This document shows, in pieces, positions 5,756 through 21,046 of a DNA stretch of 64,000 nt. This DNA comes from Cellvibrionaceae bacterium (lineage in GTDB: Bacteria > Pseudomonadota > Gammaproteobacteria > Pseudomonadales > JAILXX01): positions 1-64,000 of the forward strand of contig JAILXX010000006.1 in NCBI GenBank assembly GCA_045430295.1, written 5' to 3'. Numbering within the stretch: the stretch's first letter is position 1; every line of letters starts with the position of its first letter. The translations under genes were made by a program, and so were the position numbers. The notes under the pieces are model-generated. The model ran no database searches. It was not told the DNA's origin and worked only from the letters and a program-made list of their open reading frames with translations.

Positions 5756-5771
5756 ATTTTTCTCTCTTTAT

Positions 5772-5806
5772 CCCGCCTCACATTATGAGGCGGGATTTTA
5801 TTTTCT
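5772..5806 (+). terminator. Rho-independent terminator of glyQS
   Basis: CCCGCCTCA-catta-TGAGGCGGG hairpin followed by ATTTTATTTTCT. Confidence 0.6.
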
Positions 5807-5826
5807 GCGAGTGATTACAACTATTT

Positions 5827-6537
5827 ATGAATACGTTTCGCGGCGCATTTTTTTATTTTATTATTTACTTTACCGTTGTGCCTTACGGTATTTTTGGCCC
5901 CACGGTCTGTCGATTACTACCCTTTAAAGTTCGTTTCCCTATGCTGGTTTCATGGAACCGTTTAGTGATTTTTTTGCTACGTGTAATCTGCGGTGTGAAG
6001 GTGAATATTCAAGGGAAAGAAAATATTCCAGACAAGCCTTGCGTGGTGCTCAGCAATCACGACTCCACACTGGAAACCATCGTATTACAAACCTTGTTTA
6101 ATCCTCTGTGTACGGTGTTAAAAAGAGAACTGCTGCGAATTCCATTTTTTGGCTGGGCACTAGCAGCCTTGCTTCCCATCGCCATCGATCGCGCGTCGCC
6201 ACGAGAAGCGATTCGTCAGCTTTCCGGTAAAGGCATTTATCGCATTACGGAAAAGCAGCATAGTCTGTTAGTGTTTCCGGAAGGCACCCGAAATCCAACA
6301 AACAAACCCAATAAATGGGCCAGAGGCGGTGCCACAATCGCTATTGAATCTGGCGCCGCAATATTACCGGTTGCTCATAACTGTGGTGATTACTGGCCTT
6401 ACGATGCTATCGCGAAAAAACCAGGCACTATTACCTTTGTTATCGGTAAACCCATTCCCTCTCAAAATAGAGACAGTAAAAGTTTAACAGAAGAAGCACA
6501 GAATTGGGTTGCCGAACAACGGGCCTTAATGAACTGA
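5827..6537 (+). CDS. 1-acyl-sn-glycerol-3-phosphate acyltransferase (PlsC/LPLAT family)
   Basis: NHDSTLE (H-x4-D) and FPEGTRN motifs with an N-terminal TM segment. Positional equivalent of Pseudomonas PA0005. Confidence 0.75.
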   Translation: MNTFRGAFFYFIIYFTVVPYGIFGPTVCRLLPFKVRFPMLVSWNRLVIFLLRVICGVKVNIQGKENIPDKPCVVLSNHDSTLETIVLQTLFNPLCTVLKRELLRIPFFGWALAALLPIAIDRASPREAIRQLSGKGIYRITEKQHSLLVFPEGTRNPTNKPNKWARGGATIAIESGAAILPVAHNCGDYWPYDAIAKKPGTITFVIGKPIPSQNRDSKSLTEEAQNWVAEQRALMN

Positions 6538-6572: not shown

Positions 6573-7970
6573 TTATTCTTGATAAGCCATCGATGCAGAT
6601 TTTTCCACGGGCTCGCCGGCAACACTGTCTGGTAACAGCCACACTTCCACACGGCCATTTTTGGTATTGGAAATTTTCTGACCTACCGCCGCCAATGGCA
6701 TTACCGTTCCCAACCCCAAGGTTTTATTAACCGGTATACCACTTTTAAACAGCGCTGATCTCACAGCGGTGGCTCTTAATTTAGACAGCACATCCGAACG
6801 CTTACCGGTTTGGCTTTTTACTTCATCATTAAAACCCACCAACACTAACTTTTTATGCTGATTTTCAGGCTTTGCCATAAAATTCTGTAAACGGCTAACA
6901 TCCATCAGGGCTTTATTATCTAACCGCGAACTGCCACGATTAAATCGAAAGTTTACCGATAAGCGATCGCCGTTATACATCAACTCACGATAGGCTTGTG
7001 GTGCATTCACAAAATCTTCTTGCTTCACCGCCTGAATATTTTGTGAGATGTAACCCACCTGAGCCACAACTTCCTGACCTTTTTCGCTTTGGCAAAAACT
7101 CACAAATTCACGAATGTCATCCGTAACATTACGTTCCGGGGTATAAAGGTATAAGCGGCGAGTGAGAGGGTAGTCTTCCGTGGCAACAGATAAATGACTT
7201 GGCGCTATGGCCTGGGTTCCTTCATCGGAAACAGCTAACGCTTTCGCATTTCGAATTGAGGCAATGCCAGAGAATCCTATAGCATAGGGATCTCGTGCCA
7301 CAGTATCTGAAAGCTCATCGTTAGATTCGTAGCGCTTAGCGCTATCATCTAGTTGATAAGTCTTTTTCAAGATAAGACTTTTAAATGTATCCCAAGTACC
7401 TGAGTTATTGTCTCGGGCATGGAGACTAATGGCTGCATTAACCCCACCTAATTGCTGCCAATTATTGATTTCACCAGAAAAAATTTGCGCAATCTGAGTA
7501 GTGGTTAAACTGCCAATATTATTGGTTTTGTTAACCAAAATGGCTAAGCCATCAATAGCAACAGTGTGCTCCGACGCTGTGGAACGCATGTAACCAAATC
7601 TTTCCAGTAAGCTAACTTCCTTCTCTTTAATGGGGCGAGACGACATACCAATATCCGCTACACCAGCATCTAAAGAACGGTACCCTGTACTAGAGCCGTG
7701 AGCCGCTACCCAAATAAGCGCATTCGGGCTTTCACCTTGAATGCGAAATTTATTCTCGCCAGTAATATCAATCCGTACACTGGGAATATTTTTACTTTCA
7801 AGATACGCTTTTGCGCAATGGGGAATTAATTTGGCCCCTAAAGTATTGGAACCGTGAATAGTTAAATGAAGAGCTGGCAACGTCGACGCGTTTATTGGTA
7901 ACGCCCAAGACAATAGGCTGCCAAGAATAATACGGGTAGATCGAGTTATAAACAGAGTTAAAGCTGACAT
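6573..7970 (-). CDS. Exported fusion protein: PstS-like phosphate-binding (PBP) domain plus C-terminal OmpA-like peptidoglycan-binding domain
   Basis: Signal peptide, a PstS-like core (SGIASIRNAKALAVS...), and a C-terminal OmpA_C-like segment (NFRFNRGSSRLDNKALMDVSRLQ...LVGFNDEV...GRVEVWLLP). Confidence 0.65.
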   Translation of the reverse strand: MSALTLFITRSTRIILGSLLSWALPINASTLPALHLTIHGSNTLGAKLIPHCAKAYLESKNIPSVRIDITGENKFRIQGESPNALIWVAAHGSSTGYRSLDAGVADIGMSSRPIKEKEVSLLERFGYMRSTASEHTVAIDGLAILVNKTNNIGSLTTTQIAQIFSGEINNWQQLGGVNAAISLHARDNNSGTWDTFKSLILKKTYQLDDSAKRYESNDELSDTVARDPYAIGFSGIASIRNAKALAVSDEGTQAIAPSHLSVATEDYPLTRRLYLYTPERNVTDDIREFVSFCQSEKGQEVVAQVGYISQNIQAVKQEDFVNAPQAYRELMYNGDRLSVNFRFNRGSSRLDNKALMDVSRLQNFMAKPENQHKKLVLVGFNDEVKSQTGKRSDVLSKLRATAVRSALFKSGIPVNKTLGLGTVMPLAAVGQKISNTKNGRVEVWLLPDSVAGEPVEKSASMAYQE

Positions 7971-8040
7971 GCATAAATCCTAATATTGTTAGGATTTATA
8001 GGGTAAAAAACTCATATGACAGTTTTGTTAAACAAACATT

Positions 8041-8078
8041 ACAACGCCAGACGCGTTGAACAAGGCGTCTGGCGTTGT
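8041..8078 (-). terminator. Strong rho-independent terminator ending the minus-strand operon 19784-8088
   Basis: Perfect 12-14 bp stem AACGCCAGACGC / GCGTCTGGCGTT with a 10-nt loop. The minus-strand RNA follows with GUAAUGUUUGUUUAAC. Confidence 0.6.
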
Positions 8079-8087
8079 AATGATACG

Positions 8088-8345
8088 TTAATGTTTCTCT
8101 AACACTTCTGAGAGCGCCTCAATTCTTTCTTGCATAGCTGAAGTTATTTCATCTGCTCGCAAGCGATTTACAATATTATTCAGTACCCGCTTTTCATTAT
8201 CATCAATGACTCCATCACGGGTTGCGATATCAATAATTTCATCTAGCTCCTTCTCATCTAACTTACCATCATTGGCAAAGCAATTGATGGAGTGAAAGGT
8301 CATTTCTAGATAGTCTCTACTTTCTGTCATTGTTATATCCCTCAT
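8088..8345 (-). CDS. Small acidic helical protein, tentatively TerB-like (85 aa)
   Basis: DGKLDEKELDEIIDIATRDGVIDDNEKRVLNNI pattern of paired acidic helices typical of TerB-type domains. Last gene of the operon, 3 bp after the preceding gene. Confidence 0.4.
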   Translation of the reverse strand: MRDITMTESRDYLEMTFHSINCFANDGKLDEKELDEIIDIATRDGVIDDNEKRVLNNIVNRLRADEITSAMQERIEALSEVLEKH

Positions 8346-8348
8346 TCA

Positions 8349-8915
8349 TTATTTAAGAGTTGTATTTAAGTATTGCCGAATATCGCGTTTTTCAACATGC
8401 TGATCCAGCCACTGCTTAAATTCGTCGACTTTTGTAAAATCATCCCCTAACTTTTTACGATAACGGGCTTTCAGTGTTTCTTCTTGTCGTTCTAAGCGAA
8501 TGTTTCGCTGCCAAGCATCGGTAAATATTTTTGGAAGTTTATTATGTATATCTAACTGCTGAAGCAACTTCCACTCACCTTTATCTAGCCAGGCTTCATC
8601 ACAACTTGTGCAAAGCTCTAGACGATGATTAATATCTCTTCCTATTTGAAAGCGACTCATAAATTTAGAACACTTCGGGCACAACTTTGCTTCACTGCTA
8701 TCTTCAGTAATCACATCTTCAGCTATTTCAGCAACACTGTTTTCAGCATGCTGATCAATCCAGTACCGATAATTCATTAGCGATAACAAAGAACCATCAC
8801 ATTTTGGACATACGGCTGCCAGTAGTCCTGGAGATATCTCTTTGGGCTCTAGTTGATAACCTTTGCATTGTGGGCAATCCACATTTACTCCGTTTATTAT
8901 TACTCTGGTAAACAA
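8349..8915 (-). CDS. Double zinc-ribbon protein (YfgJ/TFIIB-ribbon-like), 188 aa
   Basis: Two CxxC...CxxC ribbons (CPQC...CPKC and CPKC...CTSC). Overlaps the upstream gene by 16 bp (translational coupling). Confidence 0.55.
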   Translation of the reverse strand: MFTRVIINGVNVDCPQCKGYQLEPKEISPGLLAAVCPKCDGSLLSLMNYRYWIDQHAENSVAEIAEDVITEDSSEAKLCPKCSKFMSRFQIGRDINHRLELCTSCDEAWLDKGEWKLLQQLDIHNKLPKIFTDAWQRNIRLERQEETLKARYRKKLGDDFTKVDEFKQWLDQHVEKRDIRQYLNTTLK

Positions 8916-9733
8916 CAGCGCTTGTAACGCTTACCACTACCACATGGACAGGGGCCTTTTTTTCTCTGTCGAATGTCATCCTCTATACTGAGAACGTCTT
9001 GCTTGTAAAAATCTGATAGCCGCTGAAATAGTTTTGGATGTTTTTTCTTTAACATTTTTGGGCGCTCAAAAAAGTATTCTGAAGCTACAGCAAAGAATTC
9101 AACTTTACTCGTTCCACCATACGCTCGAATATTGCTTTTTCCCTTATCAATATCTTGTATTTTTCCCTCAATAAATGAAAACCAAGGAATCGCAAAAGCA
9201 TACTCTTTCAATCTTTCAGGAAATCCATCTGTATCACCATCAGCCATATCCACTAAATGGGCAAACTCGTGAATACCCACATTCCGCTTATCGCGAATAT
9301 TTTCAAAACCTGCGTAAAGGTCAGGCTTACTCAAGGCCATTTTTCCAGCCATAGGTCCTGAGCCCACCATACCAGTTATCATAGAATCCGGTTGTTGGCA
9401 TTCAAAATTTTCATTAAAAGCCGCTGGTAATAGATAAACGCCCTTTAAATTCAAGTAGTGCCACTTTGGAAAGCCCCATACCGGAATAATGGCACTGGCA
9501 GCAACTAGTAACCTATCTTCATCAGTAACAGAGAATTGACCAGATTCAATATCTGTCGTTTGTAAAAATAGCAAAGCTCGTTTTTGAAAAATAAGCTTGT
9601 CTTTAAAGGAAAGCTTCCGATAAAACTGTACCTTATCTTCTAAAAATTGACTCCATTCAGATTTCCATAATCCTGACTCTTGCAATTCTGGTTTATAAAA
9701 TATTTCCCAAACGCCCTTTATCCAGCTAAGCAT
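8900..9733 (-). CDS. MtfA/M90-like zinc metallopeptidase with C-terminal SEC-C metal-binding motif
   Basis: HEFAH (HExxH) motif followed by DMADGDTDG. C-terminus GPCPCGSGKRYKRCC is a SEC-C motif. Overlaps the rhomboid gene by 8 bp. Confidence 0.65.
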   Translation of the reverse strand: MLSWIKGVWEIFYKPELQESGLWKSEWSQFLEDKVQFYRKLSFKDKLIFQKRALLFLQTTDIESGQFSVTDEDRLLVAASAIIPVWGFPKWHYLNLKGVYLLPAAFNENFECQQPDSMITGMVGSGPMAGKMALSKPDLYAGFENIRDKRNVGIHEFAHLVDMADGDTDGFPERLKEYAFAIPWFSFIEGKIQDIDKGKSNIRAYGGTSKVEFFAVASEYFFERPKMLKKKHPKLFQRLSDFYKQDVLSIEDDIRQRKKGPCPCGSGKRYKRCCLPE

Positions 9734-10298
9734 GCTTTATTTCCCGAAGCCGTTTTATTTTTGTATGAAGCACAGCATATAAAATACCACTGAGTACGCC
9801 AAAAATATGGTATTCAAAAGAAACACCATTCTTTAGAGGTAACAAGCCGAGTGCCATTCCCCCATAAAATACCAGCACGACAGTTGCCATAAAGAAATGC
9901 TTTAAACTCTTATCAACCCATGCCAAAGCTATCAATAATCCCCAAAGTCCAAATATCCAACCACTAGCTCCGATGTGAATAGCAGGCCTACCAAATAACA
10001 ACACCAAAATACCACTGCTCACAATAATAAAAAGACTGGCATAACAATAGAAACGTATGGGTTTTAATAAACACAATGCACTTAATAAACTTAGTCCCGC
10101 AAGATTATTTATTAGATGAGAATGACTATTGTGTATAAAAGGTGCCGTAAATATGTGATACCAACGCTCGAATGATCTGGGAATAACGCCGAGGTATTCT
10201 ATAGGCCAAATCGCTAAAGTCTTAATGATATGCACTACCACTATGACAGTGATTAAAACCGAGAGTAGTTTTATTCTTCCGGCAAGAAATTTTGTCAT
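9726..10298 (-). CDS. Rhomboid-family intramembrane serine protease
   Basis: TM2 F-x-H-x3-H-L-x2-N motif (FIHNSHSHLINN), TM4 GASGWIFG (GxSG catalytic Ser), TM6 catalytic His (YHIFGVLSG). About 6 TM segments. Confidence 0.75.
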   Translation of the reverse strand: MTKFLAGRIKLLSVLITVIVVVHIIKTLAIWPIEYLGVIPRSFERWYHIFTAPFIHNSHSHLINNLAGLSLLSALCLLKPIRFYCYASLFIIVSSGILVLLFGRPAIHIGASGWIFGLWGLLIALAWVDKSLKHFFMATVVLVFYGGMALGLLPLKNGVSFEYHIFGVLSGILYAVLHTKIKRLREIKHA

Positions 10299-13200
10299 TC
10301 TTTACGACTTGTGATTGGTTTTGTCTCTTCTTTTTTAATATCAGCTTCCAAAATTCTTAACTGCTGAGATATGTCACCCATACGGTCATGAGTACGAAGA
10401 TCAATCTCCAGCTTTTTATCCATGGTTCGTACTAGGGGTGAAATGGTATGTTCAATGGTATCGGCCAATACTCTGAGTATTTTATCGATACCTGGAACAG
10501 GCTCATTCACTACTTGTACATTTGCCTTACTCGCCTCTACTGCTGACGTGAGTTTATCCACGACATAGAGCAAGGCATCATTGCTATCTTCATCTTTACT
10601 GTCTTGGGGTTTATCAGCGCTAGTTTTTACCATCGCGGATAGTTCATCAACACCATTTACTAGATCCATCAATTGCGCAACGATTTTTCCACCGGTGTCT
10701 GCACTGTCACCACCCATAGCTTTATTACGTAAAAAGTCCTTCTTTATTTGCTCCCAGCGCTGGTTTTCTTCCTCTGTGATATTGCCTCTTAATTCCGCTA
10801 ATTTCAGTAAGTTATCCTCGGCCCCGGTTGTCAGTAACTGTGCCTCACCCAAGTAATGATCTTGGATCATTTGCATTAATTCTTTCTCATTCATAACCGC
10901 AGAGATTTTTTCAGTCATCTTGTTCATGTTGCGATAACTACCCTGCAGCTTAAAGGCCGGTTCAGTACGGTATTGATCGTTCTGTGCGGCAGATGCGATA
11001 TATTGCTGATTGATTTTCAATACCACATCTTGGACTACAAACATTTTCTTTAAAATTTCAGTGATTTCATTAATCTCAGCACCACTGTATTGGTGACTAA
11101 GATCTGTGGTTACTGCGTCCCCGCCTTTAGCCATATCAATCAGTTTATAAACATCGGCCATTTCTCTCACCGCCAACGGTGCAAGAACTGGGTTAGAAGT
11201 GAGGGCGTTTTCCACATAACTCAATGCAAACTGCTCATCCATGCCACCCAAGATATCACCCAAATTGTAGATGTCGGCACGGTTTGCCAGCATGTCTGGT
11301 ATTTTGAATGCCTCCCCGGATTCGGTATAAGGGTTACCGGCCATAATCACACAGAACTTCCGACCACGCATATCATAGGTTTTTGTTTTCCCCTTCCACA
11401 CACCTTCAATACGACGCGTTCCATCACACAGAGAAATAAATTTCTGTAAAAACTCCGGATGCGTATGCTGAATATCATCCAGATAGAGCATCACGTTATT
11501 GCCCATTTCTAGAGCGAGGTTCAGCTTTTTCAGCTCCTGGCGTGCAGTCGCGTTCGGTGCTTGTTGTGGATCAAGGGATAGCACATCGTGTCCAAGTGAT
11601 GGACAGTTGATCTTCATAAAGATCAATCCTAATCGATTCGCCACATATTCCATCAAGGTCGTTTTACCATAACCAGGGGGCGAGATCATCATTAACAAGC
11701 CCATCAAATCCGTACGCTTGTTTTCTCCCACCGTCCCCATTTGTTTAGCCAAGTTATCCCCTATCAACGCTAAATAAGATTCATTAATCAATCGGTTCCG
11801 AACAAAAGAACTGAGGGGCCTTGGTTTAAACTCTTCTAGGCGTAAAGCTTCTCTTCGTTCACTGATAACATCCTGACGTAGCTGGTGATAACGATGAAAA
11901 CTCGGTACTACTTCATTGTGGTGCTTCTGTAATCGCAGTAAAAAATCATCCAGCGCAAAGCTCAGTTGGCGATTTTGAATAGTGGGGTGATCTCCCAACA
12001 AACCCTCAACGCTAATTTGCAAATCCACTTCAGTACTGCGACGATCAATACGCTCATCCGCATTGATCAATGCTGCGGCTTCTGGAATATACCGAGCGTA
12101 AATTTCCATGCCTTTCTCTTCTACCATAGCCTGTAACCAAGCAATGGAAAGCTTCCAACGCTCCGCAGGCCAACCCAACAATTTCTCCAAGCTTTGTTGA
12201 TAGCGACGCCAAGTAGCATCATCCATGGAGCGTTTCAACTCTTCCACAAGTTCTTGTGCATATTTACTTCCAATAAATTCAAGGCGCTCTTGGGATAGCT
12301 CGGCTACTAGATACTGAGTGGCTCGCTGGATATCTAAGCTTGAAACCTTTATTGGATGAATATCAATAAAGCGCTGCATCTCTGCTGAAACTTCTTCTTT
12401 TAATAAATTCAGTGCTGTACTGCTAGAAAACACCGCCTGCAATTGCGCTGCGGATTGCGCTCGCTCTTGCCAAGATTCGTAAGAAATATTTCCTTTATCA
12501 GTCGGAAATACACTTTTTATATTGGCCCAGAAAACTTGCGCTAGCGCTCGGCTTTTAGGATCAAAACGCAATAGATCGGCACTTTCCATTACCGGCAGAA
12601 TAGCTTGAATTAACAGGCTAGCATCGTGATCATGAATACCTTTTTCATAACCTTCTTTATAACGGGGAGCCGCAAATTGTTTTACTACATTAGCAATGCC
12701 ATCTTCTTCCAATGAGGCTGTTTTTAGAGTTTGCAACGATAGTGAATTTTGTTGTTTCTCTGCAGCTTCCAGAACTAACGAAGCTAAATATTCTGCTCGA
12801 TAGACTTCATTACTTTCAGATTCCAATGGCATTTCCCAATAGGCTTCCATAGATTGCAAGCTGTCATGGTTAATGCTCTCGTAATAGTTAGTTCCTGTTA
12901 GATGGAAATTCAACTCATGATTCCGGGGAATAATAGTCAAATCCAACTCTTGGTTATTCACAGAGAATCGATGACGCGGACCCAATTTAATAACATTGCC
13001 ACCCTCTTCAAAAATATCGCTTTTATCACGCAGTGAGCGCAATGCTTGCTCTTTAATGGCTTTGAAGCGGGATTCAATATCATCTGCTTTTACAGCACTG
13101 TCTAATTCTCGTAACTTCTCTACCTGCTCTCGGATCTTAATAACCAAAGCATCCGAGGCAAAGTAAGTATTCAAATCATCAGCGTCGGTAAACTTTAAGG

Positions 13201-15583
13201 AGCGTTTTTCAATACTGGATAATATACGCCCTGCAGCATCAGTAACCGACTGCGCCTTACGCTGCCTTTCATCCAGTAACTGCTGTTTATGGCTTTCGAA
13301 GGACTCATAGATTTCCTCACGTTTATCCATAATATCTGCGAGAAACTGATCATACTCACTGAACTGACTTTCCAGCTCTTCAAGTTGCACCAGTAAACGT
13401 GACAGCTGCTCATCACATTTTTCCGGTGTTGTCGCCAAACTCAACGCATTAGTGATGCTCTGAGAGAACAATTTGAATTGTGCTCCAAACTGCGCAATGG
13501 CTTCCTCTGAGCCAAGGTTCTTTTGCTTGTGTTTTGCTGTGGCCTTGCTTTGATTAAGCTTTGAGTAAACTTGAGAAATCGCATCAATAATGCGAGTACG
13601 CACAGTGGCATCATCCACCTTTAACGTACCCATCAGCTCAGACAATAAATCCAACCCCATAGCGGTTGATTCGATAACCTCTACAATGGGCTTCAATTGC
13701 GCAATAGTAGTAGCTTCTCCGACATCTTTATTGATACTGTCAATTTTTAATGTGTACGGTTCTAGCGCTTTATCCTCTGAGAGGAAGGAAATGGTTTCTC
13801 CACTGAGATTTTCTTCTAAGCCTCGTAAGGCTTCGCTTAGCTCTTCAATTCTTGAAACATTGATATAACGATATTCTTTAATCGTAGTTAAATGGCCACG
13901 CTGATGTCTAAGCTTAGCCAAGGCTTCCACATACTCTTCCACCGTCTGCCAACTTTCCGGGCGAATCGACTGAACTAATTGCTCCTGATCTCGCTCGGCT
14001 TCCACCATGGTTTTGGCAGACTGCTGACGAATACTTTCAACTTTCTCAAACTCATCAATAACCAGCTCAGAGGTTTCTGAAATCTCTTTCAGGGTACTGG
14101 CAATGGTTGCAGTTTCTTTATCGTCTAACCAGTAATGGTCATCGAAAATCTTTCTTGCAGCTTTACTTAACTCTTCGTATAAGCGTAACGAAACTGACTG
14201 ATTGGAGATCATACGGTAAATACCGTATAAATCTGAAACACCACGGACTAATTCCGAATTACCAATTCGGCCATAGAAACTTTTACTGGCGGGCGCCTTG
14301 CTAGCAAATTCTGTACTTTCATAAGGGGTTTGCCAGATTTGCATAGGATGAACACGTGTAGGTTCTTGTTCCGCTGAAAAAATAACTAAGCGGCCATTTT
14401 CGGCCAGTGCATAACCATGTCCATAGATAGGATTTTGTAATTCCTTTTCAATCAGGTTATAAGCAAATAAACCAACAATGCCCTCTTCTTGCTCATAAAA
14501 TACATAGAGAACATCTTCACCATTAGGGGAACGAATTACACGCTTGAATTTAAGCCCACCTGTATTTTCATCGAAGGTCTTACATTCACCCGTTTGTAAA
14601 TAATAGCCCCCAGGAAAAATTAATCCGTGGTCTTCCGGTAATTGCACACAAGACTCACCAATAGCATCTACACGGATAACACTCTCTGTGAGAGTGTTAT
14701 AAATAAGATACCGCCAATTTTCTTCTCGATAAGGACGAATCTTTAATAGAATCAGGCTTCCAACAGCAGCGTAACTGATTTGACCGTCGTCTAAAGATTG
14801 TGTTTTATCTTCTACGGGCTCTCGGTAAATGCCCAGTCCATCTTCTGTATTATTCTCAATCTTTACCGTTAAATCACCGCCAACAGTTTCTACAAACACC
14901 GTATCGAGAATATTGATATGGGGATGGCGGCCATGAATACTGTCTTCTCGACTTGTTTCGATCCATTCAAAATCATGCTTAGGTGGGAGTTGGATATCTC
15001 GCTCACCTCGATTATCAATATATTGAATAGTTTGGCCGTTTGCAGAAACCGACCAACGAAACACGCGAATATCATCTAGGCGCTCACCAATTTGAAATCC
15101 AGCAAGCAATTTTCCATTTTTAATGGTGAGCTCTATTAACTTAGTATGCTTGTAATAGCGATACAGCTCTTCAAAATCATTAACGAAACTGGCTTGCTTG
15201 AGAAAACTACCATCCAGTGACACAGGTACCATTTCATGGTGACCATTCTCTTCCTTGATATCGAAGAGGGCAAAAACATCTTCTATCTTGGTTTCTTTCT
15301 TTAACCCAATAAAGACGTTATAGCCAAATAAAAGGTGACTACCTACCTGGACAATATCACGAGCGACGCAATTATTTTCTGTACGCACCCGCACACGGGA
15401 AAGCACGTCCATATCGGAGCTACCAAACTCCTCCAAGCGTGCACGATTTAATCCGTTAATTTTTTCCTGAAGTTTATTGCCCTGCTCTTCCAAACGCTTG
15501 CGAATAATTTCATAAGCGCCGCCTTCAGCCACAGCGTTATCCACTAATTCAGCAGATTCAACACCCTTATTTTTCTCTTCCAT
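10295..15583 (-). CDS. Giant 1762-aa protein with a MoxR/AAA_5-type ATPase module (about residues 1280-1480). The long N-terminal region is of unknown type (possibly beta-rich then coiled-coil), and the C-terminal tail is acidic.
   Basis: Walker A PPGYGKTT (encoded at about 11657-11680), Walker B-like MLYLDDIQ, AAA_5-like NPYTESGEAFKIPDMLANRADIY. Overlaps the rhomboid gene by 4 bp. Confidence 0.8.
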   Translation of the reverse strand: MEEKNKGVESAELVDNAVAEGGAYEIIRKRLEEQGNKLQEKINGLNRARLEEFGSSDMDVLSRVRVRTENNCVARDIVQVGSHLLFGYNVFIGLKKETKIEDVFALFDIKEENGHHEMVPVSLDGSFLKQASFVNDFEELYRYYKHTKLIELTIKNGKLLAGFQIGERLDDIRVFRWSVSANGQTIQYIDNRGERDIQLPPKHDFEWIETSREDSIHGRHPHINILDTVFVETVGGDLTVKIENNTEDGLGIYREPVEDKTQSLDDGQISYAAVGSLILLKIRPYREENWRYLIYNTLTESVIRVDAIGESCVQLPEDHGLIFPGGYYLQTGECKTFDENTGGLKFKRVIRSPNGEDVLYVFYEQEEGIVGLFAYNLIEKELQNPIYGHGYALAENGRLVIFSAEQEPTRVHPMQIWQTPYESTEFASKAPASKSFYGRIGNSELVRGVSDLYGIYRMISNQSVSLRLYEELSKAARKIFDDHYWLDDKETATIASTLKEISETSELVIDEFEKVESIRQQSAKTMVEAERDQEQLVQSIRPESWQTVEEYVEALAKLRHQRGHLTTIKEYRYINVSRIEELSEALRGLEENLSGETISFLSEDKALEPYTLKIDSINKDVGEATTIAQLKPIVEVIESTAMGLDLLSELMGTLKVDDATVRTRIIDAISQVYSKLNQSKATAKHKQKNLGSEEAIAQFGAQFKLFSQSITNALSLATTPEKCDEQLSRLLVQLEELESQFSEYDQFLADIMDKREEIYESFESHKQQLLDERQRKAQSVTDAAGRILSSIEKRSLKFTDADDLNTYFASDALVIKIREQVEKLRELDSAVKADDIESRFKAIKEQALRSLRDKSDIFEEGGNVIKLGPRHRFSVNNQELDLTIIPRNHELNFHLTGTNYYESINHDSLQSMEAYWEMPLESESNEVYRAEYLASLVLEAAEKQQNSLSLQTLKTASLEEDGIANVVKQFAAPRYKEGYEKGIHDHDASLLIQAILPVMESADLLRFDPKSRALAQVFWANIKSVFPTDKGNISYESWQERAQSAAQLQAVFSSSTALNLLKEEVSAEMQRFIDIHPIKVSSLDIQRATQYLVAELSQERLEFIGSKYAQELVEELKRSMDDATWRRYQQSLEKLLGWPAERWKLSIAWLQAMVEEKGMEIYARYIPEAAALINADERIDRRSTEVDLQISVEGLLGDHPTIQNRQLSFALDDFLLRLQKHHNEVVPSFHRYHQLRQDVISERREALRLEEFKPRPLSSFVRNRLINESYLALIGDNLAKQMGTVGENKRTDLMGLLMMISPPGYGKTTLMEYVANRLGLIFMKINCPSLGHDVLSLDPQQAPNATARQELKKLNLALEMGNNVMLYLDDIQHTHPEFLQKFISLCDGTRRIEGVWKGKTKTYDMRGRKFCVIMAGNPYTESGEAFKIPDMLANRADIYNLGDILGGMDEQFALSYVENALTSNPVLAPLAVREMADVYKLIDMAKGGDAVTTDLSHQYSGAEINEITEILKKMFVVQDVVLKINQQYIASAAQNDQYRTEPAFKLQGSYRNMNKMTEKISAVMNEKELMQMIQDHYLGEAQLLTTGAEDNLLKLAELRGNITEEENQRWEQIKKDFLRNKAMGGDSADTGGKIVAQLMDLVNGVDELSAMVKTSADKPQDSKDEDSNDALLYVVDKLTSAVEASKANVQVVNEPVPGIDKILRVLADTIEHTISPLVRTMDKKLEIDLRTHDRMGDISQQLRILEADIKKEETKPITSRKE

Positions 15584-15607
15584 ATCACTCTCTCATCAAT
15601 GTTTGTG

Positions 15608-15628
15608 AAAAGCGGGGCCCTGCCCCGC
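15608..15628 (-). terminator. Intra-operon GC-rich hairpin plus U-tract between the flotillin and giant-ATPase genes (candidate attenuator or partial terminator)
   Basis: GCGGGGC-cct-GCCCCGC perfect stem. On the minus-strand RNA it is followed immediately by UUUU (plus-strand AAAA at 15608-15611). Confidence 0.4.
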
Positions 15629-15644
15629 AATTTCCAACAGCAAC

Positions 15645-17597
15645 TTAGCTGTTGGTTTCTTCACTAACAGAGGTGGTTGTGGCTTTAGGGCCAACAAACT
15701 TCTCGATCAAGGTTGAAATGGTATCGCTTTTATCTGCTAAACCATCCACGGCTTTACCGATGGAGAGAGATTTCGCAAAGTTGTTAAAGAAGTGATCTTC
15801 ACCACCCACAATATCGATATTGGCTTTCTGCAGAGCCACCGCCAATACTTCTGCATTTTCTTTGGCAATGTCTTTACCCGCTTCGATAGAGGCCATGGCT
15901 TCTTTCAATGCAGTTTCCAAGCTCATGCGGAATTCTTCGTGGGCACGGGCATCAGTGCTCATGCTATTCATAGCATCAAACTTCTCTACCAAACCATCTG
16001 CTTCAGCCTTAAATTGTTCGCGAGTCACGTCAGCACCCGCCATACCAATTTCTTTCTCAGACTGAGCTTGCGCAAGACCCTTCGCCGCAATTACATCGGC
16101 TTCTGCTTTACCTGTACCCAAGTGTGCATCAGCTTCTGCATCGCCTTTTGCTTTAATAACATTGGCTTCAGCAACACCTTCTTTTTCCAAGGAGTAAGCT
16201 TTGGCTTCCTGTACTTTCGCATCGGCCAAACCTGGAGCAGCTCTTTCTGCTTGAACACCTTCTGCCAATTTCTTCTTAGAGTCAGCTTCTTTTGCAGCAG
16301 CTTCCAGTTGCGCTTGGGCAAGCGTGGTGATTTCAATAGCTTTATGTTTTGCAGAAAGCTCTTCTGCTTCCGCAGCTTTTACTTGCTTAACCTTTTCTTC
16401 ATCTGCTTGTGCTTCCGCAGCCAATACTTGAGTCTGCTTAGCCCGATCCGCTTCAGAAACTTCACGTACTTCTTTAATACGTTCTTCTTCAATGGCTACC
16501 GTTTTATCAACCGCAACACGCTCGCGAATTACATTTGCAATTTCTTTCTTCTCTACTTCAACGGCTTTTTCAGCTTCAATACGTTGTAATTCAACTTCTC
16601 GCTCACGAGAAACAATTTCTAAATCGCGTGCCCTTGTCACTTTTTCCACTTCAATAGCAACAGCACGTTGGCGATTCTGTTCCGCTACTTCAATTTCTCG
16701 CTTCTGATTTTCAGTTTGTACAGACAAATCCTGCTCAACTTGAATAGTCGTCGCTTCGGCTTTACGGCGCTCTTCTTCCTGAACCTTTTTGGTTTCCGCT
16801 TCTTCTCGTGCTCGAATAGTGGCAATTTCTCGCTCTTGCTTAGCTTCTGCATCAGCTTGTTGGCGTTCAAGCTCTAACATAGCCTCTACGGTTTCAACAT
16901 TTTTCTTCTTAATGGCTAATTCTTCATCACGTTCGAAAATATTGGTTTTAACATTTTGATTAGCCGTTAGTTCAGTAATTTTTCGAATACCTTCTGCATC
17001 GAGAATATTTGAAGGATCCAATGAAGCTTTAGGCGTCTGCTCCAAATAATCAATAGCAACGTCTTCCAACACATAGCCGTTTAAATCATCGCCAATAACC
17101 TGAACAATCTTGTCTCTAAATTCCTGACGGTTTTCAAACAATTTCACAAATTCGATTTGTTTACCGACAGTCTTCAGAGCTTCTGAAAATTTTGCATTAA
17201 ATAGCTGATTTACTGCATCTTTATCCGAGGCCCGCCCTGCACCAATGGATTTTGCTACTTTTAATACATCATCAGCAGTCTCATTAACTCGTAAATAGAA
17301 AGCAACTGTGATATCTGCCCGCATGTTATCTGCACAAATCAAACCATCTTTACCACGGCGATCTACCTCCAAAGTAATCAATGAAATTTTCATTAATTCC
17401 CTTTTATAGATAATCGGATACACCAAAGCACCGGTGAAATGTACTTTCGGACGAGCTGTCATATCATTGACAATCAAAGCTGTGCCTTGCTCTACTTTCA
17501 CATAGAAAGCTTTAAACAAAGCCGCAAAGCCCATCAATATAATAAAGGTAATGCCAATTCCAGTTGCGATAGGCATTAATACAGATAAATCAGCCAT
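15645..17597 (-). CDS. Flotillin-like SPFH/band-7 protein (YqiK-like), 650 aa
   Basis: N-terminal TM helix, SPFH core, and a long E/A/K/Q-rich coiled-coil region typical of bacterial flotillins. Confidence 0.8.
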   Translation of the reverse strand: MADLSVLMPIATGIGITFIILMGFAALFKAFYVKVEQGTALIVNDMTARPKVHFTGALVYPIIYKRELMKISLITLEVDRRGKDGLICADNMRADITVAFYLRVNETADDVLKVAKSIGAGRASDKDAVNQLFNAKFSEALKTVGKQIEFVKLFENRQEFRDKIVQVIGDDLNGYVLEDVAIDYLEQTPKASLDPSNILDAEGIRKITELTANQNVKTNIFERDEELAIKKKNVETVEAMLELERQQADAEAKQEREIATIRAREEAETKKVQEEERRKAEATTIQVEQDLSVQTENQKREIEVAEQNRQRAVAIEVEKVTRARDLEIVSREREVELQRIEAEKAVEVEKKEIANVIRERVAVDKTVAIEEERIKEVREVSEADRAKQTQVLAAEAQADEEKVKQVKAAEAEELSAKHKAIEITTLAQAQLEAAAKEADSKKKLAEGVQAERAAPGLADAKVQEAKAYSLEKEGVAEANVIKAKGDAEADAHLGTGKAEADVIAAKGLAQAQSEKEIGMAGADVTREQFKAEADGLVEKFDAMNSMSTDARAHEEFRMSLETALKEAMASIEAGKDIAKENAEVLAVALQKANIDIVGGEDHFFNNFAKSLSIGKAVDGLADKSDTISTLIEKFVGPKATTTSVSEETNS

Positions 17598-17668
17598 AAT
17601 GGTTACTCCGTTTCCGTTTTTTAACGTTATAAAGGCTATTAATATTAATCAGGGAATTTCTGATTCTT

Positions 17669-18361
17669 TTATTTTCCTGCGAATTCATTTTCTGAGATAA
17701 CGCGATAGGCATTCTCCGCTTCTAGTCGCTCAAATAACACTACACGATCACCTTTGCTAAAAGTCTCTTGGTCTGTCGATCTCACTTTCAAAATAAGTCC
17801 AGCACCACCATCTTCTAATATGGCTTCGCCAAAGTTGTTATCAACCTTACTGGTTTTCACAATAGCTGTTTGACCCAGAATATGTTTTATCGTTTGCTGC
17901 TGTGCTTTTTGAAATAAAGGCCTTAGTGGCTTGATTAAAAACGCCGTAATCATCACTGCGATATACAACACACCCACTAATACGGGAATACCTGCTATAA
18001 ACTTCAATAAATTCCCGGGTATAAAGCCAAAGAAGAAGTGAACGATGTAATAGCAGATAAACCAACCAAACAAAGAAACAAACGAAATAATGACAGTAAC
18101 AGGCACACCCTGAAGACCAAAGCGCAACATTAAACCAGCTAGTACATTGGCATTGCTTAAACCGGAATCTGGATTTACATCTAAAGCGCCATCAGCATCG
18201 GGGATATCGAAATCTAATGCATCAATTTCCACAAACCCTAAAACTGCCACCAACCAGTACAAAACTGTGATTGCTAAAAAGAAGGTAAAGAAGGCTGTAG
18301 GAAATGATGAAATATTTTGGTAAAACGGGTTCATATTTTCCGATAACAATATTGCAAACAT
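17669..18361 (-). CDS. YqiJ/NfeD-like membrane protein (flotillin operon partner)
   Basis: Multi-TM N-terminal half plus a C-terminal short NfeD-type beta-barrel-like segment (GEAILEDGGAGLILKVRS...KGDRVVL). Lies immediately upstream of the flotillin gene, as yqiJ-yqiK in E. coli. Confidence 0.6.
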   Translation of the reverse strand: MFAILLSENMNPFYQNISSFPTAFFTFFLAITVLYWLVAVLGFVEIDALDFDIPDADGALDVNPDSGLSNANVLAGLMLRFGLQGVPVTVIISFVSLFGWFICYYIVHFFFGFIPGNLLKFIAGIPVLVGVLYIAVMITAFLIKPLRPLFQKAQQQTIKHILGQTAIVKTSKVDNNFGEAILEDGGAGLILKVRSTDQETFSKGDRVVLFERLEAENAYRVISENEFAGK

Positions 18362-18393
18362 TTCCTACTCCTTTTCTTTTTTTATGATCAGAC

Positions 18394-19080
18394 TTATTTC
18401 TTATTCTTCAGTCTTTCGAGAATATCATCAGCGCTTTTACCCTGTGGGGCAATACCTGCTTTCTCCAGTTTTTCCTGTAAAGAATCCCCATAACTTTCTT
18501 CCGCTAACTCATTAGCCGCTGCCATTTGTGCTGACTTTAACGACTGCTTCTCTTTAATACGCTCCAAAGAATCCATAGCAGTACGCATTTTTGAATTAGA
18601 TCCACTATGCCTTTCCGCGACTGCGGCTTGTGCTCGCTGAACACTTTCAGTGGCTTTTACAGTATCAATCTGCTGCTTGATTCGCTTTAAGTTACTTTCT
18701 GTTTGCTTGATCGCTGTACGTAACTGTTCTGCACTAGCCTCGTAACCTTTACCTGCCTCTTCTTCTTGAGCTAGCTGGTTTTCCAGGTTTGCAATTTTTT
18801 GTGCTACTTCACGGGCTAAATCTTCATCGCCTTTTTCTAGTGCTTTAATTGCATAACCTTCATTTTCTGAAATATTTTTTTTCAAATTTTTAGATTTTTC
18901 TTGGGACAGCTTTTGTCGCGCAATGATTTCTGCCAATGCATCTTTCGATTGCTTTAGTTCTTCACCAGCTTCTCGCACTTCTTGATCCAAGATTCTAAGT
19001 GCTTGGCTATCCACAATAGCTTCGCCTGCTTCATTTACACCACCCTTGAGGGCGGTCATCATTTTTGCCCAAATGTTCAT
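18394..19080 (-). CDS. PspA/IM30 (Vipp1, ESCRT-III superfamily) protein
   Basis: MNIWAKMMTALKGGVNEAGEAIVDSQALRILDQEVREA is a typical PspA N-terminus. All-helical coiled-coil, 228 aa. Strong SD AAGGAG. Confidence 0.8.
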   Translation of the reverse strand: MNIWAKMMTALKGGVNEAGEAIVDSQALRILDQEVREAGEELKQSKDALAEIIARQKLSQEKSKNLKKNISENEGYAIKALEKGDEDLAREVAQKIANLENQLAQEEEAGKGYEASAEQLRTAIKQTESNLKRIKQQIDTVKATESVQRAQAAVAERHSGSNSKMRTAMDSLERIKEKQSLKSAQMAAANELAEESYGDSLQEKLEKAGIAPQGKSADDILERLKNKK

Positions 19081-19115
19081 TGTGTAATCTCCTAATTAAA
19101 TCTATCTCTGTTTAT

Positions 19116-19748
19116 CTAACTGGCTATCTCTACTGGAAATTCTAAAAATTCTGCATAAGCTTCCGTAGCTTGAATTACATTATTTGCTAGCACTTCAATT
19201 TCAAATATCACATTCGACAATTTTGATGTTGAGCTCAACGCACCAAACATATGGTAATAATCTTCATCTTTACCCGTTTTATCCAAGCTAATTGTGGAAA
19301 GCGGGAAGTACTTATGTGTACGTAACACAGTTTCATTAAACAGTGTCACATCTGTCACTTCAGTCACCGACCAAAGTACAGACTCAGCAATAATCTGCTC
19401 TCCTGACACCGTAAGAAAAATCGGTAGCTCACCATAGTTATTCATTACTATGTGTAGCGACGATTCGACACCATCAATCAACTCAATAGTCACTGATCCA
19501 CTGGTAACTAAATCTGTTTCCTGCAATGCCTTCAATAAACTCGTTGTTGTCCAATGATTTGCCGTATCAACCATAAGGCTTTCTCCTTCTAACATATTTC
19601 CTGAAATAGGTAGCCGCAGTGACTTTTCCACCTCGGCCAGACGCCTGGCATTTTCGGGCAGTATCCATACTTCTTTCTTTACAAGTCCCTGTTCCCGCAG
19701 CCGTCGCCGGTATTCCCGTTGGTAGTGTGCTGATGATTTTTTGTTCAT
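19116..19748 (-). CDS. Hypothetical protein, first gene of the operon: basic N-terminus plus possible YjfI/DUF2170-like domain
   Basis: The ORF track gives a TTG start at 19784. The ATG at 19748 is preferred because all three operator-like palindromes then lie outside the CDS. The arrangement mirrors E. coli yjfI-yjfJ (YjfJ is the PspA paralog). Confidence 0.5.
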   Translation of the reverse strand: MNKKSSAHYQREYRRRLREQGLVKKEVWILPENARRLAEVEKSLRLPISGNMLEGESLMVDTANHWTTTSLLKALQETDLVTSGSVTIELIDGVESSLHIVMNNYGELPIFLTVSGEQIIAESVLWSVTEVTDVTLFNETVLRTHKYFPLSTISLDKTGKDEDYYHMFGALSSTSKLSNVIFEIEVLANNVIQATEAYAEFLEFPVEIAS

Positions 19749-19754
19749 GGGTCC

Positions 19755-19813
19755 ACTATAGTTAATCACATGTAATGATGTCAATAAATTACATGTAATG
19801 ATTTTACATGTAA
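19755..19813 (-). promoter_or_regulatory. Candidate sigma70 promoter (TTGACA-N18-TATAGT on the minus strand) with three copies of the 10-bp palindrome TTACATGTAA
   Basis: -10 rc at 19755-19760 and -35 rc at 19779-19784. Palindromes at 19789-19798 and 19804-19813 (perfect) and 19766-19775 (TCACATGTAA, inside the spacer). If correct, the mRNA would have a very short leader or none. Confidence 0.35.
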
Positions 19814-20089
19814 CTACCCTTGCTTATTCTCTTCAGCATTTGTGCAGCTATATAAATGAACAAATCAGGGACTGTTTACTCAAGAAAAACCAGGTGTGAG
19901 AAGGTATAACTAGTGAAAATAAAGACAATCCATCACTCCTTGATATTTATTATTGTTATAGATGACCACCTGAAATCGCTACAGGCGGTCTATATTACTC
20001 TCTATTTAACTCTTTATGCCAGATGCTTAAATCAAAACCAGTAGCCTATTTCAGCATTAAGAGCACTGCATAATGTAAGTACTTACTAC

Positions 20090-21046
20090 TCAATAGCGAT
20101 CCTGTAAGTGTACCAACATTAAAGCTGAGACGTCATCGGCTGCTGTCTCGGTTACCCAGTGACTAACCCCCTCTAAAATTTCAAAATGGTATTCGGCAAC
20201 AACATAACCCTCTGAACGCTCCATTGAAGAAATACTCACGTAGCTATCGGCGTCACCCCAGATTTGTAAGGTAGGCACTGTGATCGCGCTGGCACCATAG
20301 GTCAGAATCCAGGTCCAATCTCTAGTGCGATAATAGTTAAGGATGGCATCAACGGTTTCTACATCACCCAGTTTTTCAACATACAAATCAATGGAATCTT
20401 GCGGGGTGTCCTCATAAATCCAGCGCATGTATTCATGATCATTCGCCACAAAGGTTTCTTCAAAACCTTCAGAGGTAAAATCTGCCACATAACCCTCACG
20501 CTCAATTTCGACCACATCATTATTAGCAAAGAAGTTATCGATAATAGCTTGCGGATGAGGAACAGACATGGCGGTTAGAGTGATCACCCTATCCGGATAC
20601 ATAGCCGCAAGAATCCAGGCAGTCAACGCACCGGAATCATGGCCTGCTAAGTGGAACCGATAAATGCCCAAAGTGTTAGCCATATCGATAACATCTTGAG
20701 TCCGTAAACTCGGATGATAGGCTTCCGGATTAGAGGGGCGCATCTCGGGTGCAAAACCCCGCTGATTAGGCGCAATCACATAGTAGCCTTCTGCGGCCAA
20801 AGTTTTGATAATGTCGGTATATTGATCGGCTGTGGTAGGAAAGCCATGGAGCAGAATAACTGGAGTGCCATCCGTTGGGCCGGCCGTTAACCCATCGAAG
20901 ACGCCTTCGCTGGTAGTAATATCAATACTTTTTATATTTGTATCAAAAGCTGATGGTGAGACTGAAGGAGTAGCCTCACCACTATTATTGCCACCGCAAG
21001 ATATCAGGCACAGGCAGAAAAGAGGGAGTAAGAAACGTTTCATCAC
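20090..21046 (-). CDS. Alpha/beta-hydrolase lipoprotein of the epoxide-hydrolase/haloalkane-dehalogenase type (Asp nucleophile)
   Basis: Lipobox LISC|G; HGFPT (HGxP oxyanion motif); GHDSG (Sm-x-Nu(D)-x-Sm). Confidence 0.65.
   Translation of the reverse strand: MMKRFLLPLFCLCLISCGGNNSGEATPSVSPSAFDTNIKSIDITTSEGVFDGLTAGPTDGTPVILLHGFPTTADQYTDIIKTLAAEGYYVIAPNQRGFAPEMRPSNPEAYHPSLRTQDVIDMANTLGIYRFHLAGHDSGALTAWILAAMYPDRVITLTAMSVPHPQAIIDNFFANNDVVEIEREGYVADFTSEGFEETFVANDHEYMRWIYEDTPQDSIDLYVEKLGDVETVDAILNYYRTRDWTWILTYGASAITVPTLQIWGDADSYVSISSMERSEGYVVAEYHFEILEGVSHWVTETAADDVSALMLVHLQDRY

Follow-up and report, generated by a model that had tools for sequence, protein, structure and literature searches.

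The window analyzed here is a stretch of 64,000 nucleotides from the metagenome-assembled genome (MAG) of an uncultured Cellvibrionaceae bacterium (GCA_045430295.1, contig JAILXX010000006.1, positions 1 to 64,000), and it contains nine consecutive minus-strand genes, numbered here in the order of transcription (Table 1). A check of the open reading frames (ORFs) in the window returned all nine at the coordinates given by a first-pass annotation made from the sequence alone, and the junctions were also as that annotation described them: gaps of 35, 32, 71, 61, and 3 nt and overlaps of 4, 8, and 16 nt. The start/stop overlaps tie genes 5-6-7-8 together and are of the kind associated with translational coupling. 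An operator-bearing promoter and a strong terminator (ΔG −32.9 kcal/mol) bound the block as had been proposed, and our analysis supports the view that this is a single, tightly packed operon for membrane-associated remodeling or scaffolding proteins and two proteases whose catalytic residues are intact.

Table 1. Genes and regulatory features of the operon (window coordinates)
Feature	Coordinates	Strand	Basis
Gene 1: BacA-type protein, 210 aa	19116..19748	-	NCBIfam BacA equivalog, DUF2170
Gene 2: PspA/IM30-family protein (BacB ortholog)	18394..19080	-	PF04012 at 4.6e-48
Gene 3: YqiJ/short-NfeD-like membrane protein (BacC ortholog)	17669..18361	-	tblastn; YqiJ_N at E = 0.025 only
Gene 4: flotillin with transmembrane (TM) segment, divergent SPFH domain, and coiled coil (BacD/PaFlo3 ortholog)	15645..17597	-	tblastn
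Gene 5: 1762-aa giant protein, DUF3686 + DUF7902/coiled coil + helical region + AAA+ (BacE ortholog)	10295..15583	-	
Gene 6: minimal 6-TM rhomboid intramembrane serine protease	9726..10298	-	PF01694; 4-nt overlap with gene 5
Gene 7: M90 (MtfA-like) HExxH zinc peptidase with C-terminal SEC-C zinc motif	8900..9733	-	PF06167, PF02810
Gene 8: soluble protein with two zinc ribbons and helical tail	8349..8915	-	PF13453 in two stretches
Gene 9: 85-aa TerB-like/EF-hand-like protein with two DG-x-hD-xx-E units	8088..8345	-	Family matches
Operators: three TYACATGTRA palindromes flanking or inside the promoter	19766..19813	-	
Sigma70-type promoter	19755..19784	-	-35 TTGACA, 18-nt spacer, -10 TATAGT
Intra-operon GC hairpin GCGGGGC-AGG-GCCCCGC + TTTT in the flotillin/giant spacer	15608..15628	-	
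Intrinsic terminator: 18-bp perfect stem, then GTTTGTTT	8031..8082	-	RNAfold

The first five genes correspond to a system that has been studied in Pseudomonas aeruginosa. A "biofilm-associated cluster," PA3732-PA3729, was described there (Mace 2008, PMC2587700) and was extended by reverse-transcription PCR (RT-PCR) and proteomics to bacABCDEF (PA3732-PA3727; PA14_16140-16200) (Wallart 2024, PMC10948618). The bac genes are cotranscribed and are needed for normal biofilm formation, rhamnolipid production, swarming, and virulence (PMC2587700, PMC10948618). In tblastn comparisons with a Pseudomonas paraeruginosa locus (L030; L numbers are our handles for the loci compared), genes 1-5 matched a collinear set of genes on one strand with identities of 54%, 54%, 45%, 66%, and 58%, respectively, and judged from these alignments they are orthologs of BacA-E in the same order. 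We infer that BacE is the giant ATPase and that BacF is the PLD-like gene that follows it in L030. The bac operon and the operon in the window share these five genes and a pair of TYACATGTRA operators that bracket the -35 box, but the window has no homolog of the PLD-like protein (best tblastn match, E = 6.2), and it adds the rhomboid, the M90/SEC-C peptidase, the double zinc-ribbon protein, and the TerB-like protein.

An identical core of five is also found in a class defined by Ravi et al. (2024, mSystems), in which CesT/Tir and PspA proteins are combined with a band-7/flotillin protein, an AAA+ protein with coiled-coil and β-propeller regions, and YqiJ/YuaF. Ravi et al. noted a PLD hydrolase in some Proteobacteria as the sole extra component and found that "abbreviated" forms without PspA are more widespread; a rhomboid, a peptidase, TerB, the promoter and its operators, and an N-terminal domain on the CesT-like protein are not mentioned. 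The first-pass annotation knew of no described system that joins PspA, flotillin, and NfeD to a giant AAA+ protein and two different proteases. For the core this does not stand, given bacABCDEF and the class of Ravi et al., but it does for the four-gene tail: the two proteases were correctly picked out as an undescribed addition, and the rhomboid, the M90 peptidase, the zinc-ribbon protein, and the TerB-like protein together are a new, clade-specific extension of the described core. The pairings of DUF2170 with PspA and of NfeD/YqiJ with flotillin recur in Escherichia coli yjfIJ and yqiJK and in Bacillus subtilis yuaF-floT and pspA-ydjGHI (samGHI), but neither the giant AAA+ protein nor the proteases are part of these operons. 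B. subtilis YdjG, which carries two zinc ribbons and is encoded in a pspA-SPFH operon, is a possible analog of the gene 8 product (PMC11237479, PMC8581546). The canonical Psp system (pspF-pspABC) has a PspA_IM30 protein in common with the window, but HMM searches matched no product of the nine genes to PspB, PspC, or PspF, and its promoter is a sigma54 promoter used with PspF, whereas the promoter in the window is sigma70-like.

Most of the domain assignments made in the first pass held up in profile hidden Markov model (HMM) searches; the weaker ones were those of the flotillin, YqiJ, and the TerB-like protein (sub-threshold), together with the MoxR/AAA_5 typing of the giant protein. Because gene 2 scores just 16 bits against the TIGR02977 PspA equivalog (cutoff 243), we regard it as a member of the PspA_IM30 family and not as a PspA ortholog. 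The gene 4 flotillin gave no Pfam match even at E ≤ 10 and a weak match to FloT in NCBIfam. The identities of the flotillin and of the YqiJ-like protein therefore rest on tblastn to the L030 genes taken as PaFlo3/BacD and BacC; PA14_16160 has been termed a short NfeD (PMC13086221). The flotillin is conserved at 54-88% identity across the loci in which it was found in the survey described below.

Gene 5 encodes the largest product. In HMM searches its N-terminal region matched DUF3686 (PF12458) at 8e-208, followed by DUF7902 and by AAA and AAA_5 (PF00004, 38 bits; AAA_5, 27 bits, with a cutoff of 22). The protein has more than 6,600 homologs and is 68-78% identical across genera. The 20 giant homologs that we aligned all share the Walker A sequence GYGKT, an Asp-Asp pair in Walker B, and the sensor-1 Asn; Walker B reads LYLDDIQH (residues 1366-1373, window region 11470-11480), so that Asp-Asp takes the place of the usual Asp-Glu in 20 of 20. 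A search of the PDB found no solved relative of the giant protein, and a PDB profile search gave matches at the level of Walker A only (E ≥ 0.03). When residues 1190-1700 were modeled from an alignment of eight sequences, the mean predicted local distance difference test score (pLDDT) was 55, with values of 75-88 in the AAA+ core. A Foldseek search of the PDB with this low-confidence model returned MCM, ClpA, Lon, RuvB, and the MoxR-type proteins CbbQ/NorQ at E values of about 1e-3 and template modeling (TM) scores of about 0.2. The motif that follows sensor 1 resembles that of MoxR by eye only, and the operon has no vWA gene. These searches confirm an AAA+ fold for the giant protein, with a generic AAA+ similarity that assigns it to no particular clade.

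We then compared the neighborhoods of 80 giant-anchored loci taken from GTDB species representatives, out of at least 581 that were confirmed, and scored the nine proteins in each by tblastn. The sample includes Cellvibrionales, Pseudomonas, Xanthomonadales, Alteromonadales, Enterobacterales, two Burkholderiales, a Zetaproteobacteria MAG, and Longimicrobium; for some high-GC loci with spurious antisense ORFs, the tblastn coordinates were used. The giant ATPase was present in 80/80 loci, the flotillin in 77, and YqiJ in 72, with the misses falling mostly at contig ends. PspA was found in 45 loci, next to gene 1, and BacA in 44. The rhomboid gene was found in 25 loci, mostly directly after the giant gene, the 85-aa protein in 17, the zinc-ribbon protein in 15, and the M90 peptidase in none (0/80). 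In 24 of the 80 loci, including L030, the gene after the giant or rhomboid gene encodes a PLDc_2 protein of 229 aa. The YqiJ-flotillin-giant triad is thus the invariant part of the operon, the BacA-PspA pair is present in about 55% of the loci, and the rhomboid, zinc-ribbon, 85-aa, and PLD genes are optional. The giant occurs without any PspA in 27 loci, which correspond to the "abbreviated" form of Ravi et al.

These frequencies bear on what the giant protein acts with. Because it is found with YqiJ and flotillin in 72-77 of the 80 loci and without PspA in 27, its primary partner is more likely to be the SPFH scaffold than PspA. The first-pass annotation had been reminded of ESCRT-III/Vps4, and the likeness, which extends to CdvB/CdvC, is that a PspA-family (ESCRT-III superfamily) gene and an AAA+ ATPase gene lie in one operon. 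The giant protein, however, has a DUF3686 + DUF7902 + AAA architecture with no MIT domain and is not of the Vps4 type, and it tracks flotillin and YqiJ even where PspA is absent, which weakens the analogy.

The proteins of the tail were examined for their active-site residues. The rhomboid encoded by gene 6 (58 bits, 1.5e-15) retains H56, H61, and N65 (the H-x4-H-x3-N motif of TM2), G110-x-S112-G113, and H164-xx-G-xxx-G, all of which are invariant in 22 orthologs, and with only 30 bits where NCBIfam requires 84, it does not qualify as a rhombosortase. Gene 7 matches Peptidase_M90 with 195 bits (2e-57), and the SEC-C motif at its C terminus is an addition to that family. Its zinc site, H155-E156-x-x-H159 (HEFxH), is invariant in 18 homologs, and with 51 bits against a cutoff of 400 for NF011939 it is not an MtfA equivalog. 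The gene 9 product itself is below threshold for TerB (E = 0.061; 14 bits, cutoff 24.4); within its family, 10 of 15 proteins match TerB (best 5.8e-5) and 8 of 15 match EF-hand_5. The position of this 85-aa gene varies: it follows the giant gene or ends the operon in Cellvibrionales, and in Pseudomonas and some Lysobacter it separates the flotillin gene from the giant gene. The shifted position was seen in L022 (9521-9796), L024, L029, L040, L077, L060, and L072.

The M90 gene is absent from the 80 GTDB loci, but it is not an artifact of this genome, because the operon recurs with all nine genes and an unchanged order in Teredinibacter sp. KSP-S5-2 (L081), where it again comes directly after recF-gyrB. 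Many M90/SEC-C homologs are also on contigs whose lengths equal those of contigs with a giant homolog. Among metagenome loci anchored on M90, the giant gene is upstream in 17 of the 53 that could be assessed, the rhomboid gene is adjacent in 16 of 61, and the zinc-ribbon gene is directly downstream in 20 of 65. Genes 1-8 occur in order on six metagenome contigs (L091, L096, L100, L103, L105, and L157), with gene 9 as well in L103 and L105. M90 joins the operon in a marine clade, and since the majority of close M90/SEC-C homologs are encoded elsewhere, these comparisons identify the peptidase as a recruited accessory. The nine-gene block is kept in its full order in Teredinibacter, but genes 6-9 are optional. 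We also considered whether M90 had replaced the PLD protein and rejected this, as both are present in L089-L092, L103, L105, L111, and L131.

An alternative is that two units merely abut without any mechanistic link, the bac core (genes 1-5) on one side and an M90/zinc-ribbon module, perhaps with the TerB-like gene, plus the rhomboid on the other. The absence of M90 from the GTDB loci would fit such an arrangement, as would the location of 36 of the 53 assessable close M90/SEC-C homologs elsewhere in the genome, the occurrence of an M90-zinc-ribbon pair without the giant in L095, the fact that the accessory genes are all optional and variable in position, and the terminator-like hairpin that precedes the giant gene. 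However, start/stop overlaps of 4, 8, and 16 nt join genes 5-6-7-8, and a promoter scan of the region found no strong internal promoter or terminator separating these genes. Teredinibacter and several metagenome contigs repeat the order with proteins that are only 60-78% identical, and the rhomboid, zinc-ribbon, and 85-aa genes each recur with the giant gene in the distant Pseudomonas, Hahella, Cellvibrio, and Xenorhabdus. We consider it unlikely that the tail is an unconnected unit. Terminator-like GC hairpins with T tracts are also present in the flotillin-giant spacers of L081, L112, L018, L027, L032, and L034, although RT-PCR in P. aeruginosa showed read-through. The hairpin in the window is probably an attenuator that sets stoichiometry by lowering the dose of the distal genes.

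Upstream of gene 1, the -35 hexamer (19784-19779) and the -10 hexamer (19760-19755) match the sigma70 consensus at 11 of 12 positions, which is the best match in 12 kb. The TTG at 19784 that had been called as the start of gene 1 is the -35 hexamer itself, and the true start is the ATG at 19748, which corresponds to position 1 of the BacA model and is conserved in 38 loci. Three TTACATGTAA-type palindromes are present at the promoter in the window (19813-19804, 19798-19789, and 19775-19766). In loci with gene 1, two TYACATGTRA boxes are found at about -48 and -25 from the ATG, where they bracket the TTGAC -35 box, and this arrangement is kept from Cellvibrionales to Pseudomonas, Lysobacter, and Burkholderiales. 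The motif is tightly linked to gene 1: in 1.03 Mb from 42 loci with gene 1, 72 of 77 occurrences fall within 200 nt upstream of it, and none of 27 loci without gene 1 shows the motif upstream of the operon (0/27).

In the window, 6 nt separate the -10 box from the ATG of gene 1. As this distance is 6-7 nt in 28 of 38 loci and a Shine-Dalgarno-like motif precedes gene 1 in just 1 of the 38, the operon mRNA, judged from these spacings, is probably leaderless. In Gammaproteobacteria such mRNAs are uncommon; repressor genes such as lambda cI provide known examples. No sigma54 consensus was found within three mismatches near the start of gene 1 in L030. By eye, the only candidate for a sigma54 promoter in the window was a poor TGGCAT-N5-GTTA about 270 nt upstream, and it was rejected.

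Gene 1 belongs to DUF2170 (2e-51) and exceeds the cutoff of the NCBIfam equivalog NF050185, "biofilm formation regulator BacA" (316.2 bits, cutoff 300), over positions 1-203 of the 206 in the model. The protein is built from a basic, conserved N-terminal domain of 47 residues (window 19608-19748), a variable linker, and a DUF2170/CesT-like chaperone domain. The first 47 residues are the most conserved part of BacA, with the pattern M..KSSA.YQR..R.RLREQGLVKKEVWILPE....L...E..LR. The codon-position entropies across this region are 0.75/0.47/1.45, and the N-terminal region is therefore translated. E. coli YjfI, which we take to be about 133 aa long, should lack this domain. Matches to the MazE-like antitoxin family PF11455 were obtained with 18 of 29 N-terminal domains, all below the Pfam gathering score. 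An AlphaFold2 model built with 33 database homologs was confident for the DUF2170 domain and placed a helix-strand-helix at the N terminus with a pLDDT of 43-57.

Published gene models do not include this domain. The crystal structure of BacA (PDB 8Q8O) matches gene 1 over residues 63-203 only (2e-41), the record of this MAG gives gene 1 as 152 aa, without the N-terminal domain, and PA3732 has been annotated as a 16-kDa protein (PMC2587700). In L030, by comparison, about 180 nt separate the short start from the conserved start upstream of it, and the N-terminal stretch is found at 5722-5899. Read against these sequences, the shorter models suggest that both the 8Q8O structure and the promoter assignment in P. 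aeruginosa were built on an N-terminally truncated gene. In a bacA mutant of P. aeruginosa, BacB-F are derepressed 6-13-fold (PMC10948618), and an interaction between BacA and BacB has been predicted (PMC13092808). Because the operators are linked to BacA, the promoter appears leaderless, the N-terminal domain is conserved, the bacA mutant is derepressed, and a BacA-BacB interaction is predicted, an autorepressor is the simplest model; the combination suggests that BacA is a DNA-binding autorepressor, with an inferred DNA binding that would be coupled to PspA.

We read the whole as a clade-specific, extended bac-type operon for a Psp-like response to membrane stress and for membrane maintenance, and we put the probability of this reading at about 0.62. 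Every phage-infected sample showed induction of P. aeruginosa PA3728-PA3732 (PMC12041424), and the P. aeruginosa orthologs respond likewise to hyperosmotic shock (PMC2587700); both inductions fit a phage-shock-type stress response. The flotillin and its YqiJ/NfeD partner would form an SPFH scaffold on the inner membrane, and the giant β-propeller/coiled-coil/AAA+ protein would serve as an ATP-driven assembly or remodeling factor for the scaffold or its clients. The PspA-family protein, where present, would provide ESCRT-III-like membrane sealing. BacA may bind PspA through its CesT-like domain and, through its basic N-terminal domain, the two TYACATGTRA operators around the -35 box, so as to repress its own promoter; membrane stress would pull PspA, and hence BacA, away and relieve the repression. 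The hairpin after the flotillin gene would lower the output of the distal genes. The tail of four genes would bring proteolysis and regulation close to the membrane: the rhomboid may cut a transmembrane client or a component of the scaffold, the SEC-C zinc motif would tether the M90 peptidase, which the double zinc-ribbon protein encoded next to it possibly controls, and the TerB-like protein may act as a metal-dependent or membrane-dependent modulator. With the same confidence we favor a division of labor in which the SPFH scaffold and the giant protein are the invariant engine, PspA and BacA an optional module for sealing and regulation, and the proteolysis tail a later gain in one clade.

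Several observations weigh against this reading. The Asp-Asp of the giant's Walker B, in place of Asp-Glu, makes its competence for hydrolysis uncertain, and none of the operon's components has a known biochemical activity. A paFlo3 mutant of P. aeruginosa has a marginal phenotype only (PMC13086221). About two thirds of the close M90/SEC-C homologs are off-operon, so the peptidase may act independently. On the regulatory side, the published model of the P. aeruginosa bac promoter is a sigma54 promoter and not a sigma70 promoter with operators, and the N-terminal domain of BacA has sub-threshold MazE-like matches, no solved relative in a PDB search, and a low-confidence model.

Taken further, the parts would combine into a single device, with BacA as a bifunctional partner switch on a leaderless promoter and the flotillin, giant, rhomboid, and M90 proteins as a hub for membrane proteolysis; we offer this joint version tentatively, and doubt that all of it will prove right. 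If it did, a MazE-like N-terminal domain of BacA would sit on the two operators while the CesT-like domain held the PspA-like protein, and a chaperone/partner-switch circuit that senses whether PspA is engaged at the membrane would control expression of the operon; this would replace the sigma54 model for P. aeruginosa bac. The hub would be functionally analogous to the mitochondrial SLP2-PARL-YME1L (SPY) complex, made from unrelated parts. That complex reportedly unites an SPFH protein, a rhomboid, and an AAA+/zinc metallopeptidase, the same set of activities as the operon. SPFH scaffolds also occur with a protease, as here, in HflK/C-FtsH and in the archaeal pair of stomatin PH1511 and NfeD protease PH1510 (PMC13086221). 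In the window, by contrast, the AAA+ protein and the zinc peptidase are separate and unrelated to those of such assemblies (DUF3686-AAA+ and M90, not FtsH/M41), and the analogy is drawn from the genes alone and is not one of homology.

The first-pass annotation also raised defense of the abortive-infection type. On this anti-phage or conflict hypothesis, the proteases, and the PLD proteins of relatives, would be effectors triggered by envelope damage. Induction of the P. aeruginosa genes in phage-infected samples is compatible with it, but such induction is also what a phage-shock-type stress response predicts. The PLD-superfamily hydrolase in relatives, the SF1 helicase gene that overlaps the end of the PLD gene in Pseudomonas, and the integrase and IS110 transposase just downstream of the Teredinibacter operon can likewise be cited in its favor. 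However, when the nine proteins were compared with the 5,027 models of PADLOC-DB 2.0, only coiled-coil (JetC/LmuB, E ≥ 3e-4) and SEC-C noise was returned. The site is a housekeeping one, flanked on one side by dnaA, dnaN, recF, gyrB, and an alpha/beta hydrolase gene and on the other by a PBP/OmpA protein, an acyltransferase, glyQS, and a lipid A acyltransferase, and no tRNA or mobile element was found within the 64-kb window. The giant protein, with its thousands of homologs and its high identity across genera, is unlike fast-evolving, patchily distributed defense genes. We conclude that a defense system is very unlikely.

The name "DNA repair ATPase," which appears in the description of PF12458 and in most database entries, points to a third alternative, in which the giant protein would act in DNA repair and the operon would couple DNA transactions to the membrane. 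The operon adjoins recF-gyrB both in the window and in Teredinibacter, nucleases are known among single-HKD PLD proteins, and some Pseudomonas loci have an SF1 helicase gene after the PLD gene. However, we found no experiment behind the name, and a literature search for "DUF3686" returned no paper. (An eLife paper on "Arc" was set aside as irrelevant, as PA3729 appears there only as immunoprecipitation background.) A Pfam search detected no nucleic-acid-binding domain in the giant protein, whose invariant partners are two membrane proteins, and the adjacency to gyrB is not kept outside the clade, judged on P. aeruginosa, where the operon is PA3732-PA3727 (PMC10948618). We regard a role in DNA repair as highly improbable, the least probable of the readings considered.

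The core operon is widespread, with thousands of homologs, a spread over many gammaproteobacterial orders in the 80 loci, and a link to biofilm formation and virulence in P. aeruginosa, and the system looks like housekeeping stress machinery and not like a defense island. The analysis ties an ATPase of 1,700-1,800 residues to a flotillin/NfeD scaffold rather than to PspA, and it provides a concrete regulatory hypothesis, in which full-length BacA would act at a leaderless promoter by binding its TYACATGTRA operators. In the variant with proteases, natural candidates for substrates and partners of bacterial flotillin assemblies are at hand.

Other same-strand neighbors of the giant gene include MscS-type channels, DUF2721, and TelA, which are membrane-stress genes, as well as a Metallophos phosphoesterase and, in Pseudomonas, the SF1 helicase. 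Genes for an MscS-type channel, DUF2721, or TelA lie directly after the giant gene in other lineages (L008, 15680-16843; L020, 15343-16590; L072, 16035-17132), and they reinforce the theme of membrane and osmotic stress. In the Pseudomonas loci L022 (15781-19181), L024, and L077, the PLD-like gene is followed by an SF1 helicase gene (903-914 aa, AAA_11/AAA_12) with stop and start touching, so that a nuclease-helicase-like pair is appended to the operon. The phage-type integrase and the IS110 transposase of L081 are located at 15604-19915, downstream of the Teredinibacter operon, an arrangement unlike that in the window.

The window covers the origin region, as indicated by the dnaA cluster and by a turn in the cumulative GC skew near 32-34 kb. 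The operon is about 6.5 kb from dnaA, with the alpha/beta hydrolase gene (20090-21046) between it and gyrB, and yidC lies beyond on the other strand. Immediately past the terminator, a minus-strand gene (6573-7970) encodes a protein with PBP_like_2 and OmpA domains, and the same domain pair is present in some PspA/Snf7-AAA+ operons (Ravi et al. 2024).

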